In this document: one piece after another, positions 23,452 through 29,750 of the stretch
Numbering within the stretch: position 1 is the first letter of the stretch
How the letters are laid out: every line of letters begins with the position of its first letter
Source of the DNA: Myxococcota bacterium
GTDB taxonomy: Bacteria; Myxococcota_A; UBA9160; UBA4427
Assembly (NCBI GenBank): GCA_046583095.1
Contig: JAYGDB010000048.1
Coordinates: forward strand, 18,865 to 82,864
Reading direction: 5' to 3'
DNA length: 64,000 bases
Notes under the pieces: generated by a model
Database searches by the model: none
The model's input: only the letters and a program-made list of their open reading frames with translations
What the model was told of the DNA's origin: nothing
Position numbers and translations under genes: made by a program

Positions 23452-23698
23452 TGCGCGCTCCCTTCGAAGTCCTGAGCTTAGGGGCTTTGCCCCCCCAGCG
23501 ACCAGACCCCCCGCGCTCGCTCGGGAGAACGAAAGCCACGCTGGCGAGGACGAGGCGCGATCGAAGGGTCGCGCCGAGACCGTCAGTAACGCGCGAGTCG
23601 TCGCGCCGGTGTCGCAGCTGACGCCGCCAGCCGATGGCCCGTGTGACTGCCACGAGCGCCTCCCGCGTGCGATACTGAAACCTTGGAGGTGCCCCCCG

Positions 23699-24073
23699 GT
23701 GATCAGCGAAGCCATCCACCACGTCTCGTTTTCCATTCCCGAGCTCGCTCCCGCGCTTCACTTCTATCAGCAGATCCTCGGCTTCGAGCCCCTCGACCGC
23801 CCTTCGATGGGAATCGACGGGGCCTGGCTCCAAGCCGGCAATACCCAGATCCACCTGATCGTCGCGCCCGAGGGCGCCGACGTCGGAAGCAAACCGAGCA
23901 AAACCAATCCGCTCGCGAACCACTGTGCGTTCGCGATCGACGACTACGAGAAGACTCGAGATCGCCTGAAGCAACACGGCCTCGAGATTGTCGAGGCCGG
24001 GGCCGAGCGCGGCCAGATGTGGGTGAGCGACCCTGCCGGGAACGTCCTGGAGTTCATCTCGCCTCGCCCCTGA
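23699..24073 (+). CDS. VOC family protein (glyoxalase/bleomycin-resistance fold)
   Basis: GTG 23699 lies 10 nt after GGAGG. Contains IHHVSFSIPELAPALHFYQQILGF, GNTQIHLI and DPAGNVLEF. Confidence 0.8.
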   Translation: MISEAIHHVSFSIPELAPALHFYQQILGFEPLDRPSMGIDGAWLQAGNTQIHLIVAPEGADVGSKPSKTNPLANHCAFAIDDYEKTRDRLKQHGLEIVEAGAERGQMWVSDPAGNVLEFISPRP

Positions 24074-24093
24074 GGTCCGGGGTCAACAGTACC

Positions 24094-26433
24094 GTGTCGG
24101 ACGACGCCAAGTACGAAGGCCTGATCCTCCAGCCCACCTATCGGGTGCGGAACGGTCGCCCTGTCGTCCAGCTCTTCGGACGCCTGCTCGACGGGCCCGC
24201 ATTCCTGGTCGAAGACGATCGCTTTCGCCCCTACTTCTTCATACGTGCGAGCGAAGCGCATCGCGCCGCCGGCGAGCGCGATGTCCAGGTGCACCGGACC
24301 TCCCTCCGCAACCTGCACGGCGAAGCCATGGCCCAGGTCGTGATGTCTGTACCCTCCGCGGTACCGGCTCTGCGCGATCGCCTGCACGAGCAAGGCGCCG
24401 GCCCGTGTGAAGCGGACATCCGGTTCCCCTACCGATACCTGATCGACCACGGTGTGCGAGCGGCGGTCGAGATCGAGGGCACCTCTCGGAAGCGGGGCGA
24501 CCTCCTCTACTTCCGCAATCCCGAGCTCCGCCCGGGGAGCTGCAGACCCCACCTCTCGAGCCTCTCCCTCGACCTCGAGACGACCCTCGACGCGAGCGCG
24601 ATCTTCTCGGCAGCCTTCGTATACAAGGGCGTCGACGAGACGAGCGTCGAAGAGGTGCACGTCGTCTCGGCGGAGCGCGTCGATCACGAGCACACTCACA
24701 TCCACGACAGCGAGGCCCATCTCCTGGTGACCGTCGCTCGACGAATCCGCGAGCTGGATCCCGATCTGATCCTCGGCTGGAACGTGGTGGAGTTCGATCT
24801 TCGGGTCTTCACCCGTCGCTGTGAGCACCTGGGGCTGCCACCTCGAGAGTGCCAGCTGGGCCGGATCGAAGGTGCGGTCTCCTTCCAGCAGGATCGCAGC
24901 TTCACCAGGCAGAGCCGCGCCGACATCCCGGGACGCATGGTCCTCGACGGCATCCCGCTCGTCCGCGACGCCATGCGGCTGCAGGACTACCGGCTCGAGA
25001 CCGTCGCACGGGCCGTCCTCGGTCGGGGCAAGAAGATCGACCACGAGGCACCCGACGCGGGCCTCGAGATCCAACGCCTCTACCGCGAAGAGCGTGCGGC
25101 GCTCGTCGAGTACAACCTCGAGGACGCCCGACTCGTGGTCGAGATCCTCGAGCACGAAGGATTGCTCGAGCTCGCCCTGGAGCGCAGCCTGCTCTCGGGC
25201 ATGCAACTCGACCGCGTGGGCGCCAGTATCGCGTCCTTCGACCTTCTGTATCTACCCGAGCTTCGGCGCCGAGGGTTCGTGGCCCCGAGCGTCGACTCGT
25301 CGCGCAAGCAGGAGCCCATCCAGGGTGGAGCGCTCCTCGACGCCGTTCCCGGCCTGACCTCGAACGTGGCGGTCTTCGATTTCAAGAGCCTCTACCCGAG
25401 CCTGGTCCGCACCTTCAACCTCGATCCGCTGGCCCTCGCGATGGCGAACGAGTCGGAGCCGGAGACGACCGTCGAAGCCCCGAACGGCGCGCGCTTCTCA
25501 CGTGAGCCCGCCATCCTGCCCGGCGTCATCGAGCGTTTCATGGAACGGCGGGAACTCGCCAAGGCGCGCGGCGACCGGCACGCCGACCAGGCCATCAAGA
25601 TCATGATGAACGCCATGTTCGGCGTCTTCGCCGCGGGGTCCTGCCGCTTCTTCGACCCCCGTGTTGCAAACGCGATCACCGGCTTCGGCCAGCAAACCCT
25701 CGGCTGGACGCGTGACGCGTTCGAGGCCGAAGGCATGAAGGTCGTGTACGGCGATACCGACTCGGTCTTCGTGCAGTTCGACACTCGCGCCGACGGCCCC
25801 AATGCCGCCGAACTTCGCGACCGGGTCGAGAAACAGATCGCTGCGCGTATCCGGGAGCAGTACGGCGTCGAGCCGCTCCTCACCCTGGAGCTGGAGAAGG
25901 TCTACGACCGGCTCTTCCTCCCGCGCGTGCGCGGCGGCGCGCGCACAAGCAAGAAGCGCTATGCGGGCTGGCTGAATGGCGGGCTCGAGATCGTCGGACT
26001 CGAAGCCATTCGGAGGGACTGGCCGGCGGTGGCCGCACGTCTCCAGGAAGGCATGCTCACGCGCCTCTTCTGCGACGACGAGGTAATGCCCTTCGTCAAG
26101 CAGATCGCCCACGAGGTCATGCAGGGAGAGCGCGACGACGAACTCGTCTATGTGAAACGCATCCGAAAGCCGCTCGAGAGCTACACCGCATCGACGCCAC
26201 CCCACGTCCAGGCTGCCCGCAAGGCTGGAGGAACGACGGGGCCCGTCATCCGCTACGTAATCGCACGAACCGGGCCCGAGCCGGTCGTCCCCGGCGGGCC
26301 TATTCCCGGAAACATCGATCGCCGTCACTATCTCGAGCGCGTGCTGAGACCCGTCGCCGACGCCATCCTCGTCGAGATCGGCCACAGTTTCGACGAGGCG
26401 ATGGGACAACCGCGACAACTCGACTTGCTGTGA
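24094..26433 (+). CDS. polB: DNA polymerase II (family B)
   Basis: ExoI LSLDLETT, motif A DFKSLYPS, KIMMNAMFG and motif C YGDTDSVFV. About 779 aa, like E. coli Pol II. There is no ATG near the start, so I chose GTG 24094. Confidence 0.9.
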   Translation: MSDDAKYEGLILQPTYRVRNGRPVVQLFGRLLDGPAFLVEDDRFRPYFFIRASEAHRAAGERDVQVHRTSLRNLHGEAMAQVVMSVPSAVPALRDRLHEQGAGPCEADIRFPYRYLIDHGVRAAVEIEGTSRKRGDLLYFRNPELRPGSCRPHLSSLSLDLETTLDASAIFSAAFVYKGVDETSVEEVHVVSAERVDHEHTHIHDSEAHLLVTVARRIRELDPDLILGWNVVEFDLRVFTRRCEHLGLPPRECQLGRIEGAVSFQQDRSFTRQSRADIPGRMVLDGIPLVRDAMRLQDYRLETVARAVLGRGKKIDHEAPDAGLEIQRLYREERAALVEYNLEDARLVVEILEHEGLLELALERSLLSGMQLDRVGASIASFDLLYLPELRRRGFVAPSVDSSRKQEPIQGGALLDAVPGLTSNVAVFDFKSLYPSLVRTFNLDPLALAMANESEPETTVEAPNGARFSREPAILPGVIERFMERRELAKARGDRHADQAIKIMMNAMFGVFAAGSCRFFDPRVANAITGFGQQTLGWTRDAFEAEGMKVVYGDTDSVFVQFDTRADGPNAAELRDRVEKQIAARIREQYGVEPLLTLELEKVYDRLFLPRVRGGARTSKKRYAGWLNGGLEIVGLEAIRRDWPAVAARLQEGMLTRLFCDDEVMPFVKQIAHEVMQGERDDELVYVKRIRKPLESYTASTPPHVQAARKAGGTTGPVIRYVIARTGPEPVVPGGPIPGNIDRRHYLERVLRPVADAILVEIGHSFDEAMGQPRQLDLL

Positions 26434-26461: not shown

Positions 26462-27385
26462 ATGCCGCGAGACACCGACCCGCGGCGCTGTACTCCGCTA
26501 GGACCCATGCCTGAGATCGAGGCCGCCGTTCGCATTGCTGTCGACCGTCCTCTCGCGGACGAGTGGTCGCTCGTTCTCACCTCGCAGGGGATCGAGAATG
26601 CGATTCGGCATACGCCGGAGGGGTTCGCGATCCTGGTGGACGCGGCAGACCTGGATGACGCCGTTCGTTCACTCGACAGCTACGCGCTGGAAAATCCCGG
26701 AACCCCGGCCGCGGCCGAGGAGCCGCAGGACCCGATCGGCGAAGTGGATCGATTCGTGGGCGGATCGCTGGGAGTGCTGATGATCGCGTTCTTCCTGGTC
26801 ACGGGCCCTCGCAATCCGGACGTGGCCTGGTTCGCCGCGGGCAGCGCGGACGCCTCGCGGATCCTGGCCGGAGAGTTCTGGCGAACCGTGACGGCACTGT
26901 GTCTGCACGCCGACCTCAGTCACGTGCTGTCGAACGCGCTCTTCGGCGCACTCTTCGTCGGCGCGGTCTGTGCCGGGTTCGGCCCCGGGGTCGGCGTCGC
27001 CCTGACCCTGGCTGCAGGCGCGGCCGGGAACCTCGTCAACGCGGTCTTCCAGGGCCCGGACCATGTCTCCATCGGCGCCTCGACGGCGGTCTTCGGCGCA
27101 GTCGGCCTACTGGCGGGACGCGCCGTCGCGCAGCGACTTCGCCGGGGCGAACTCGGGCTCCGGATCTGGGTGCCGATCGCAGCGGGTCTGGCGTTGATCG
27201 CGATGCTCGGAACGGGCCAGCGCAGCGACATCTGGGCCCACGGCTTCGGCTTCTTGGCCGGGGGCTTCCTGGGCCTTCCGGCGAGCCTCGCGTGGCCGCA
27301 GCGCGCGGGCCGAAGCCTGCAGTGGGGCACGCTGGGCCTCGCAGTGGTCGTACTGGTTCGGTCCTGGCAATTCGGACTCGGCTGA
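26462..27385 (+). CDS. rhomboid-family intramembrane serine protease with ~110-aa N-terminal cytoplasmic extension
   Basis: LHADLSHVLSN (HxxxxHxxxN), GASTAVFG (GxSxxxxG, catalytic Ser) and AHGFGFLAG (catalytic His). Confidence 0.85.
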   Translation: MPRDTDPRRCTPLGPMPEIEAAVRIAVDRPLADEWSLVLTSQGIENAIRHTPEGFAILVDAADLDDAVRSLDSYALENPGTPAAAEEPQDPIGEVDRFVGGSLGVLMIAFFLVTGPRNPDVAWFAAGSADASRILAGEFWRTVTALCLHADLSHVLSNALFGALFVGAVCAGFGPGVGVALTLAAGAAGNLVNAVFQGPDHVSIGASTAVFGAVGLLAGRAVAQRLRRGELGLRIWVPIAAGLALIAMLGTGQRSDIWAHGFGFLAGGFLGLPASLAWPQRAGRSLQWGTLGLAVVVLVRSWQFGLG

Positions 27386-27444
27386 GTGCTTCGTCGGCAG
27401 CTGCCTGCAGATCGGATCGCGGGCGTTAGACTCCCCTCCTTCCC

Positions 27445-28857
27445 GTGATCGCCCGAACCAACTCGACGATGCCCGGAACGGCCGTGGCGCGGCACCCGGC
27501 CAGATTCTCCTGCATGGCAGCGCTGCTGGCCGCCGGCCTGCTCGCCACGCCCGCGCAAGCCCAACAAATCGTCGACCTCGAGAGTTCCGAAGGCACGATC
27601 TCGGTGCAGCTCTACCAGAACGTCAACCTGGCTCCCTTCGTGAACGCCTTCGCGACACACTACACGGGGCCCCCCGGCGGCTTCGTCTTCCACAGGAGCG
27701 ACAAAGACCCGTGCGACCTGGGCTCGTGTGCGTGCATCTCTTTCGACTGCACGGGCTGCCAGGACCTGCTGGAGCCGCTCTTCCGGTGCGACGACGAAGA
27801 GCCCGCCGTGTGCTCCTGCTCGGACCCGATGACGACCCCGGCGTTCGAGTGCACCCTGAACGAAGGGACAACGATGCAATGCCCGGTTTCCGCCGTGGCC
27901 AATCCGAATCTCGCGACCTGCACCTGCGCGGACGATTCGGAGCCAGCGTTCGCCTGCGAAGACGAATCGGCTCCGCCCGGGGCCTGCCTGGAGGTCGACC
28001 TCAACGCGCCGTCCCCGGCCCTCTACCTGGGGTTGTATCGAGTCGACAACGGCGGCGACGTGGTGCCCATCTCCGACTACATCCCGAGCGCGCACCAGAA
28101 CGACTCCGGGATCTTCATGAACGAGCCAATGACCCTCGCCTTCGTCCGGGACGCCTCGACCGGGCTCATCACCTCCGAGGTGGTCATCAACGTCGAAGAC
28201 AACACAGACCCGTTCGACGGAGCCACCGGAACAGGCTCCGACGCCTACATGGTCTTCGGCGAGGTGGTCGGCGGGCAGAACGTGGTCGACAACATCTCCC
28301 GCCTGCCCACGCTCGATCTCTCCGTGCAGGTCGACGACGGCGAAATGCCACCCAGCGAGATCTTCCTGACCTGCTCGGACCAGCCGGTACCGCTTCCCTC
28401 CTGGATCCGCGGAATCCCGGACGCAATTCGTTGCGACATGAACGACCCCTGGGATCGGTTCCCGCTCATCGACCTCACCGGAGCAGACCCGCTGCCGCGG
28501 ATCAACGGCTGCATGCCCGGGGATGCCGACTGCCAACTCCCGATCTGCATGGTGACCGGGCTCGTCGAGGGCTGCGACGTTCCGTCTTGTCCCGAGATCG
28601 CGGCCTTTGACGGTGTCGACCGCTGCACCGCCCCGCTGCTCCCGGAATGCCTCGAACCCGGCCAGCTCGTCGGTCAGATCACGCCGTGCCTCGACCCGGC
28701 CTGCGACGATACCTTCGACGACTCGGGAACCCTGCGCTGCAGCGAGCCCCTGGGGCCGAACTTCCCGGTGCCGGAGCCGGCCCCTGCCAGCCTGGCTGCG
28801 GCAGCACTCGCAACGCTGGCCGCGCTCCGCCGCCTGCGCCGCCTGCGCCGCGCCTAG
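27445..28857 (+). CDS. secreted cyclophilin-type PPIase homologue with Cys-rich insertion, Cys-rich C-domain and PEP-CTERM sorting tail
   Basis: Signal peptide ..TPAQA|QQ. Cyclophilin blocks are SSEGTISVQLY..APFVNAF..FVFHR, then after the insert YRVDNGGD, MTLAFVRD, SEVVINVEDN and YMVFGEVVGGQNVVDNI. C-terminus is VPEPAPASLAAAALATLAALRRLRRLRRA. Confidence 0.75.
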   Translation: MIARTNSTMPGTAVARHPARFSCMAALLAAGLLATPAQAQQIVDLESSEGTISVQLYQNVNLAPFVNAFATHYTGPPGGFVFHRSDKDPCDLGSCACISFDCTGCQDLLEPLFRCDDEEPAVCSCSDPMTTPAFECTLNEGTTMQCPVSAVANPNLATCTCADDSEPAFACEDESAPPGACLEVDLNAPSPALYLGLYRVDNGGDVVPISDYIPSAHQNDSGIFMNEPMTLAFVRDASTGLITSEVVINVEDNTDPFDGATGTGSDAYMVFGEVVGGQNVVDNISRLPTLDLSVQVDDGEMPPSEIFLTCSDQPVPLPSWIRGIPDAIRCDMNDPWDRFPLIDLTGADPLPRINGCMPGDADCQLPICMVTGLVEGCDVPSCPEIAAFDGVDRCTAPLLPECLEPGQLVGQITPCLDPACDDTFDDSGTLRCSEPLGPNFPVPEPAPASLAAAALATLAALRRLRRLRRA

Positions 28858-29750
28858 CGGGGAAGTCCCAGGATCCGCTCCGCATCCGTCGTCGTGGCGA
28901 CCGGAACCCCCACCTCTTCACACAACTCTACGCTGCGGGCGACGATCTCCTGATTGGTGGGCTTGTCGCTTCCCATGTAATCCTCGAGACCGACGTGCAG
29001 GTGCCCCCCGCGCTCGAGAGCGTGTCGCGCAAGGCCCTGCTCGAAGACGTCGCCACCGAGGACCCCCACCGACCAGGGAAGCTCGCTGTCCCCGAGCAGT
29101 TCGAGATACACGTCGAGGCCCCAGGGCGTTGCCGGCAGACCGAAGCTCACGCCCTTGTGGCCCTGCCCCATGTAGCCGTAGTCGCCGCCCATGTAGAACT
29201 TGATCAGCGATCCCGCCGGCAGGCGACCCGCCTGGTGGTACGCGAGCGCGTGCCGCAGAAAACCCGGCTCGAAGATCGCGATGCTCGGCCCGAGCCGGAG
29301 CGAGTGGTGGAGATCGAAGGCCCAGCGGATCTCGGCCGGGGTATTCGCGTAGGCGAAGTCGATCGGGAGCGGCACACCGTCCGCGTCGGCGCCTCCGAGG
29401 TTGACCGAGCCCGGATCGACGAAGCCGATCCGCAGGTTCACCGCCTGCGCGACGATCTCCAGGTGGGCGTACCTCTCCTGCACCGTCGCCCCGAAGCCCA
29501 GGGTCGGATAGACCAGCGCATCGGAACGCTGCGCCAAGATCGGACGCATGTGCTCGAGATACGCGGCCGCGGCTTGCTCTCCGGGCACCATGATGTCCGC
29601 GATGTGGGTGTGCACGATGCAGGCACCAGCCTCGATGCACGCGAGCGCACACTCGGTGATCTCCGCGGAACTGCGGGGCACGTTCGGATTCGTTTCCTTG
29701 GACGTCTGGCCGTTCAGGGCCACTTCGATCATCGCGGGTGAGACTGTCAC
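28854..29750 (-). CDS. 3-keto-5-aminohexanoate cleavage enzyme family (BKACE/DUF849)
   Basis: MIEVALNG..NPNVP.SAEEI, ACIVHTHI (HxH Zn site) and GGHLHVGLED. Confidence 0.85.
   Translation of the reverse strand: MTVSPAMIEVALNGQTSKETNPNVPRSSAEITECALACIEAGACIVHTHIADIMVPGEQAAAAYLEHMRPILAQRSDALVYPTLGFGATVQERYAHLEIVAQAVNLRIGFVDPGSVNLGGADADGVPLPIDFAYANTPAEIRWAFDLHHSLRLGPSIAIFEPGFLRHALAYHQAGRLPAGSLIKFYMGGDYGYMGQGHKGVSFGLPATPWGLDVYLELLGDSELPWSVGVLGGDVFEQGLARHALERGGHLHVGLEDYMGSDKPTNQEIVARSVELCEEVGVPVATTTDAERILGLPR

Follow-up and report, generated by a model that had tools for sequence, protein, structure and literature searches.

A cyclophilin-like protein of an uncultured marine Myxococcota bacterium with a cysteine-rich insert at its active-site hairpin and a PEP-CTERM-like tail

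What becomes of a cyclophilin when a cysteine-rich module is lodged in the hairpin that carries its catalytic arginine? The question is raised by an open reading frame (ORF) at positions 27445-28857, on the plus strand, of a stretch of 64,000 nucleotides (contig JAYGDB010000048.1, positions 18,865 to 82,864; this whole stretch is called the window below) from an uncultured marine Myxococcota bacterium, which codes for an exported protein that resembles cyclophilins. The cyclophilin fold is one of the best conserved among enzymes, and large domain insertions into it are rare. As judged from alignments, a Cys-rich insert interrupts the cyclophilin fold of the window protein at the hairpin of the active site. 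The reading favored here, and considered rather probable as a whole, is that of an exported, disulfide-stabilised cyclophilin-like protein whose insert lies beside the old pocket, which would have traded the isomerase role for a binding or structural one and would be sorted by a PEP-CTERM signal. The gene, its product (in amino acids, aa) and the gene directly upstream are laid out as follows.

27445..28857, plus strand: whole ORF, 470 aa from the GTG at 27445, stop codon included; likely start at the ATG at 27469 (M9)
27469..27561, plus strand: Sec-type signal peptide, MPGTAVARHPARFSCMAALLAAGLLATPAQA with QQ following the cleavage site; read directly from the sequence, with a basic n-region, the core MAALLAAGLLA and an AQA cleavage motif
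27565..27696, plus strand: N-terminal cyclophilin block, aa 41-84, beta1-beta2-alpha1-beta3, ending at FHR, where R84 corresponds to R55 of human cyclophilin A (hCypA); from hhalign
27697..28017, plus strand: 107-aa insert, aa 85-191, with 14 invariant Cys and three CxCxD..PxFxC units; from the alignment, repeat z-scores and AlphaFold
28018..28329, plus strand: C-terminal cyclophilin core, aa 192-295, from beta4 (ALYLG) through the helix after VFGEVV; from hhalign, PF00160 and PDB matches
28330..28764, plus strand: linker and 12-Cys C-terminal domain, aa 296-440, with two LPxC..CxPxC..RCxxPL units; from repeat analysis
28765..28854, plus strand: PEP-CTERM-like sorting tail, made up of VPEP, an Ala/Leu-rich helix and an RRLRRLRR cluster; from motif conservation and weak family-model matches
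26462..27385, plus strand: rhomboid intramembrane protease gene, directly upstream, given for context only; PF01694, E 2e-17

The gene had been picked out earlier by a sequence-only reading, and the ORF is present with a translation that matches what was quoted there. The ATG at 27469 (M9) is probably the true start, since homologues begin at positions equivalent to M9 or V14 (MAGTTVAR.., MARHPAR..), and A39 and Q40, on either side of the signal-peptide cleavage site, are invariant across the family alignment. On recount, the 14 Cys given earlier for the insert and the 12 for the C-terminal domain proved exact (aa 85-191 and aa 296-440, respectively), with one further Cys in the signal peptide. 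In nine homologues, down to 47% identity, all 14 of the insert Cys and 11 of the 12 in the C-terminal domain are invariant.

The evidence that the fold is indeed that of a cyclophilin, on both sides of the insert, comes from several profile comparisons. The Pfam model PF00160, which the sequence-only reading had suggested as a check, scores 22.5 bits on the protein against a cut-off of 21.7, and covers aa 226-291 only. A profile of nine homologues matched the PpiA/PpiB-type cyclophilins of the PDB (E 9e-10) in two stretches, one of which stops at FHR while the other begins about 130 residues further on. When the N-terminal block (aa 41-86 of 13 family sequences) was compared with a canonical cyclophilin profile, hhalign gave 96.8% and E 3e-10, finishing at FHR, and the block alone, run against the PDB, found cyclophilins in the right position at every match with E <= 0.3, the best being 5e-4. 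The second part (aa 192-291) gave 98.6% and E 5e-16, with L193-Y-L-G196 aligned on the I-Q-G-G of strand beta4, so that the fold resumes at A192-L-Y-L-G196; a MAFFT alignment with human CypA and six canonical relatives had the identical register. The insert is thus delimited as aa 85-191, because the N-terminal block ends at FHR and the equivalent of the beta4 IQGG resumes at ALYLG. It replaces the turn of about five residues that links the catalytic Arg55 to Phe60 in the beta3-beta4 hairpin and reads I-I-P-G-F in hCypA, and since 107 aa take the place of about 5 aa, the net gain is about 100 aa. The earlier placement at the active-site loop is therefore borne out by the alignment, between R55 and F60, while its length of about 125 aa was an overestimate and its point of return to the fold, YRVDNGGD, lies a few residues too late. 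In P0015, a relative with a short insert, one Pfam alignment bridges the insert and runs from aa 45 to 241 on profile positions 2-144.

The insert and the C-terminal domain are each built of repeats. Three units of the form C-x-C-x-D-x(3-4)-P-x-F-x-C make up the insert, with pairwise z-scores of 3.8-4.4 against shuffled sequences (1 of 500), and two units of the form LP-x-C...C-x-P-x-C...RC-x-x-PL are found in the C-domain (z 4.1); a relation of the two modules to each other was not detectable. The CxC..aromatic-x-C units at one point suggested EGF-like hairpins, a loose resemblance that was given up, as the units do not conform to the EGF signature and no model match backs it. Neither module matched Pfam at E <= 1 when searched alone or had a sequence match in the PDB, and no paralogue of either was found within the bacterium's own genome. 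Two AlphaFold runs, one of the full-length protein and the other of aa 41-300, had alignments of only 9-12 sequences to work from and modelled the insert as beta-hairpins with a predicted local distance difference test (pLDDT) score of 70-88, everything else staying below about 55 (mean pLDDT 40.5 for the full protein and 53.6 for aa 41-300). On the question of whether the insert forms an independent domain, both runs show a confidently modelled module of its own in an otherwise poor model. Foldseek found no significantly similar fold with these models, which is weak evidence of novelty since the cores are so poorly modelled. Because each module has an even number of Cys and the protein is exported, the 26 Cys that remain after removal of the signal peptide would form seven and six intramodule disulfides. 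The insert is, in any case, a database-orphan Cys-rich module that is modelled with confidence and could be used for structural study.

Whether such a protein can still act as a peptidyl-prolyl isomerase (PPIase) was approached by mapping the catalytic and pocket residues of hCypA on the window protein and its relatives (MAFFT; n=14 for R55). The set R55, F60, M61, Q63, A101, Q111, F113, L122 and H126 is not conserved as a whole in the window protein, in which R55 is kept (R84) and F60 is replaced by P, M61 by A, Q63 by Y, A101 by V, Q111 by E, F113 by V and H126 by Y. Across the family the positions read as follows.

R55: R in 11/14; E, K or L in the other three
F60: P, A, K, R or G, unconserved
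M61: A, T, V or Y
Q63: Y or H; Q only in P0015
A101: V or I
Q111: E; Q in two members
F113: V or I
W121: D, N or E
H126: Y, as in active E. coli enzymes

In mutagenesis of hCypA by Zydowsky and colleagues in 1992, changes at R55, F60, F113 and H126 are each said to have cut activity 30- to 1000-fold, and R55, Q63, Q111 and F113 are retained in the canonical PEP-CTERM cyclophilins of related genomes. With substitutions at several pocket positions and a catalytic Arg that varies within the family, canonical PPIase activity has probably been lost, which makes plausible what the sequence-only reading had raised as a possibility.

The alternative that survives best is that the protein is still an active prolyl isomerase with an altered substrate specificity, the Cys-rich insert acting as a substrate-selecting or chaperone-like lid in a manner comparable to AquaCyp300 of Hirschia baltica (see below). 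This would explain the retention of R84 (R55), of H83, of LAFVR in beta5, of Y268 (H126, with Tyr as in E. coli PpiA and PpiB) and of the VFG motif; the AquaCyps stay active in spite of large insertions and altered active-site sets (PMC4898713), and the canonical PEP-CTERM-anchored cyclophilins of the same order provide a precedent for a PPIase at the surface. The alternative must, however, accommodate a catalytic Arg that is E, K or L in three family members, an unconserved and often charged F60 position, the replacement of Q63, Q111 and F113 alike, and an N-terminal cyclophilin block that is the fastest-evolving part of the protein. It is regarded as unlikely, though it deserves to be kept in mind.

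The C-terminal tail had been called a textbook PEP-CTERM signal. What stands of this description is the layout, VPEP-APASLAAAALATLAAL-RRLRRLRR, with a helix of about 16 residues and an Arg cluster at the very end, and with P443, E444 and P445 invariant in 12 sequences; the word "textbook" does not stand, as the tail fails both TIGR02595 and PF07589, an outcome that the earlier reading had itself named as speaking against it. In a scan of its own genome, in which 26 other tails pass TIGR02595, the window tail was not reported at E <= 10, it was not recovered in PF07589 and NCBIfam scans, and, taken by itself, it matched nine PEP-CTERM family models only in their C-terminal ends and only at E 0.003-0.35. 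The assignment as a divergent PEP-CTERM signal, which is considered fairly likely from the sequence, has indirect support from four other observations. At 20.0 bits, the tail of the orthologue P0011 comes close to the cut-off of 20.7 without reaching it. A tblastn search with the tail in its own genome returned other PEP tails first (contigs C59, C107, C34, C195 and C221), of which the C107 tail passes TIGR02595. An 862-aa relative, P0013, carries an almost identical Ala-rich VPEP tail at its new C-terminus, behind an added FGE-sulfatase-like domain, which is where a terminal sorting signal is expected. Finally, the search for an exosortase proposed by the sequence-only reading turned up three exosortase-family genes in the genome (PF09721 matches) alongside the 26 model-positive tails: an XrtA-like one that passes TIGR02602 (110.5 > 105.55), an XrtH (99.4 > 86) and an XrtD-like one with an EpsI domain.

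Within this genome (G000), the 26 tails that pass TIGR02595 are Gly/Leu-rich. Tails with an Ala-rich helix behind VPEP occur on contigs C59, C195, C198, C221 and C80 (the last being that of the window gene), and these fit the PEP/helix/Arg pattern while staying below the TIGR02595 cut-off. The Ala-rich VPEP tails may form a subclass matched to one of the three exosortases.

In the favored reading, then, the protein would be exported by the Sec pathway and lose its signal peptide, after which the 26 Cys (14 + 12) would form disulfides within their modules. The cyclophilin barrel would stay intact on either side of a repeat-built module of 107 aa that has grown from the beta3-beta4 hairpin, beside the catalytic Arg and the proline pocket. 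Most likely no longer a general prolyl isomerase, the cyclophilin domain would rather serve as a rigid scaffold or in ligand binding, with the insert as a new surface by the old substrate groove. The divergent PEP-CTERM tail would hold the protein in the inner membrane until cleavage by one of the exosortases of the genome, which would hand the protein on to the cell envelope or the exopolysaccharide matrix and so place it at the cell surface. Several points weigh against this reading. The tail, as said, fails the two general models. R55 is kept in the window protein and in 11/14 relatives, and the change of H126 to Y is also found in active E. coli cyclophilins, so a residual or specialised PPIase activity may persist. 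The structural models of the core stayed below pLDDT 55, none being of useful confidence, and the position of the insert relative to the groove is accordingly taken from the known topology of cyclophilins. Lastly, part of the divergence may be plain relaxed constraint, because the ratio of nonsynonymous to synonymous substitutions (dN/dS), at 0.3-0.6 by the simple Nei-Gojobori method, is high overall, the estimate being crude for genes that are GC-rich and partly saturated.

How the long insert came about can be followed in its relatives, since a search for homologues with the same insertion point, as the sequence-only reading had advised, found several with shorter inserts at the same turn. 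In ordinary PEP-CTERM-anchored cyclophilins (a paralogue in the same genome on contig C221, and proteins in genomes G114 and G107) the hairpin has 3-7 extra residues; in P0015 (388 aa), in P0013 (862 aa) and in the same-genus genomes G093 and G094 it holds a module of 35-50 aa with 6-7 Cys; and in the long form it has 14 Cys. As relatives carry 3-7 aa or 35-50 aa (6-7 Cys) at the same hairpin, the long insert probably arose by stepwise expansion of the beta3-beta4 hairpin together with internal duplication. These intermediates appear to show a repeat-built disulfide module growing from the active-site turn while the catalytic residues decay.

The paralogue on contig C221 (30882-32075, minus strand) is an open frame of 398 aa (382 aa if counted from the first Met). 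It combines a signal peptide with a canonical cyclophilin domain that scores 100.7 bits with PF00160 and has a 7-aa insertion at the same hairpin, and it also has a C-terminal region of about 170 aa that contains Cys and a PEP-CTERM-like tail (PF07589, 16.3 bits). In two genera of one family, canonical PEP-CTERM-anchored cyclophilins adjoin a gene for a luciferase-like oxidoreductase (L012 1387-2181 in G114, 264 aa; L019 775-1983 in G107), from which exosortase-sorted cyclophilins appear to be recurrent in this lineage. The positional orthologue of about 860 aa in G093 and G094 (protein P0013; L011 1210-3501 and L010 1177-3402) has a cyclophilin-like domain whose short insert holds 6-7 Cys, together with a Cys-rich domain, a long middle region rich in Ser, Gly and Asp and an FGE-sulfatase-like domain (PF03781, E 7e-21), followed by the VPEP tail that is nearly identical to that of the window protein.

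The family itself is tiny and confined to a few uncultured marine Myxococcota. In an exhaustive hidden Markov model (HMM) search of 1.84 billion representatives, five clusters reached E <= 1e-30 and 20 proteins reached E <= 1e-10, the lower matches being essentially ordinary cyclophilins matched in the core only. Word-index searches that covered 5.8 billion proteins gave 9-11 members, each of them from a marine metagenome or a Myxococcota metagenome-assembled genome. No member was found in a scan of 185,579 species genomes; a JGI metagenome scan gave two loci, and among the genomes of the order the family is present in 3/193. In G093 and G094 the cyclophilin-like gene stands in the same place, after the genes for a family-B DNA polymerase (PolB) and the rhomboid. 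Compared with the window copies, PolB is 74-77% identical there and the rhomboid about 60%, against 25-38% for the cyclophilin-like protein, which therefore evolves much faster than its neighbours. Within the protein, the N-terminal cyclophilin block has the highest dN/dS, which reaches about 1 in distant pairs, whereas the tail and C-domain have the lowest values in most comparisons.

A bolder proposal can be built on these relatives, and it is put forward as a doubtful one: the beta3-beta4 hairpin of an envelope-anchored cyclophilin would be an expandable display site, on which a repeat fold that is knotted by disulfides and new to both Pfam and the PDB grows by duplication of its units (from 6-7 to 14 Cys), turning a dead isomerase into a fast-evolving surface recognition protein, whose Ala-rich VPEP anchor might be a substrate of the adjacent rhomboid and thus represent a second rhomboid-linked C-terminal sorting besides that by rhombosortase.

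The rhomboid is also at the center of a separate alternative, namely that the adjacent protease processes the Ala-rich VPEP tail, instead of or alongside an exosortase, and that the gene pair is a sorting or shedding cassette, comparable to rhombosortase acting on GlyGly-CTERM. The rhomboid gene ends 59-83 nt upstream of the cyclophilin-like gene on the same strand, with no terminator-like site between the two, and it was found directly upstream in 9/9 contexts that include upstream DNA, even next to P0015 at 27% identity. Small residues are unusually frequent in the tail, which does not pass the generic PEP-CTERM model, and the best NCBIfam match of the rhomboid is to the rhombosortase model TIGR03902. 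This match, however, stays at 26.4 bits where the cut-off is 84, and the tail lacks a Gly-Gly motif, its invariant PEP pointing to an exosortase instead. The phylogenetic profile is what decides: full-length rhomboid orthologues (36-60% identity) occur in 101/193 genomes of the order, against 3/193 for the cyclophilin-like family, and at nine other rhomboid loci that were inspected there was no cyclophilin-like or PEP-tailed neighbour. Since the rhomboid is so widespread without the cyclophilin-like gene, it was rejected as a dedicated sorting enzyme; processing of the tail by it is improbable, and is retained as a minor alternative on account of the invariant adjacency of the two genes. As for the locus, the rhomboid (26462-27385, plus strand) has an N-terminal soluble extension of about 110 aa, and its gene starts 29 nt after the family-B DNA polymerase gene (23683-26433), so close that these two genes and the cyclophilin-like one may share a transcript. 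Scans of the locus for promoters, terminators and Rfam families gave nothing informative.

A further alternative, that the Cys of the two modules serve as thiolate ligands of metal, as they do in metallothioneins or zinc ribbons, and are not disulfide-bonded, is suggested by the three CxC motifs and one CxxC of the insert and is nonetheless very improbable, given a signal peptide and terminal membrane anchor that imply folding in the oxidising envelope, an even number of Cys in each module (14, 12), neither the His/Cys spacing of known zinc-binding families nor a Pfam match, and an insert that is modelled as beta-hairpins.

The favored reading, of an exported and sorted protein with a modified cyclophilin fold, can be set beside what is known of related systems. 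To our knowledge, no large cyclophilin insertion has been described at the hairpin on which the proline pocket and the catalytic Arg lie. Before and after the insert alike, the sequence is matched best by the periplasmic cyclophilins of the PpiA/PpiB type (PF00160; PDB 8xck, 3t1u, 1clh, 2nul), with which the window protein has the FHR, LA(M/F)xR, (Q/E)xxINV and Y-x-VFG-x-V motifs in common, as well as, for PpiA, Sec export; they have neither the insert nor the Cys-rich domains nor a membrane tail, and they differ at five or six positions of the pocket. Among bacterial cyclophilins that carry a large insertion inside the fold, the nearest described precedent found is the pair AquaCyp293 and AquaCyp300 of Hirschia baltica (PDB 5ex2), which are likewise exported marine bacterial proteins, stabilised by disulfide bonding and furnished with a large internal insertion and terminal extensions (PMC4898713). 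AquaCyp300 also has an altered active-site set and a low, specialised activity, being weakly active and specific for hydrophobic peptides (PMC4898713). In the AquaCyps, however, the insertion is in the beta4-beta5 loop and forms the NIC domain, the extensions are N- and C-terminal and there is one disulfide (PMC4898713), whereas the window protein has a 107-aa insert in the beta3-beta4 hairpin with a 14-Cys repeat module, a separate 12-Cys domain and a sorting tail. No similarity of the insert to the NIC domain was seen in sequence or fold.

The PEP-CTERM cyclophilins of the order (C221, G114 and G107) resemble the window protein in their signal peptide, cyclophilin domain, VPEP/helix/Arg tail and insertions of 3-7 aa at the same hairpin, and the C221 protein also in its Cys-containing C-terminal region. 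They differ in that R55, Q63, Q111 and F113 are kept, in scoring 67-101 bits with PF00160 as against 22.5, and in having no Cys-rich insert and no rhomboid neighbour. A full-text search of the literature found no paper on PEP-CTERM cyclophilins. The sorting route proposed here follows what is known of the PEP-CTERM and exosortase families, reportedly described by Haft and colleagues in 2006. With that system (EpsH, XrtA) the window protein shares the tripartite signal at the extreme C-terminus and the invariant PEP, in a genome with exosortase-family genes and many PEP-CTERM proteins; it differs in a tail below the TIGR02595 and PF07589 cut-offs, a helix that is Ala-rich and not Gly/Leu-rich, and the absence of an exosortase gene nearby. 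The protein would add a case of enzyme-derived cargo to this poorly understood pathway, with a practical impact that is limited by the narrow distribution in a few uncultured marine Myxococcota.

Two minor points concern the frames around the gene. A 538-aa frame that overlaps it on the minus strand (26920-28536) was rejected as a high-GC artefact, because the plus-strand product has conserved homologues, invariant Cys, homology to Pfam and PDB entries, and independent gene calls on other contigs. Downstream, a convergent BKACE gene (28854-29750, minus strand) has a stop codon that overlaps the stop of the cyclophilin-like gene by 4 nt (28854-28857), and the same 4-nt overlap with the BKACE gene is seen in the loci L004, L005, L006 and L008.

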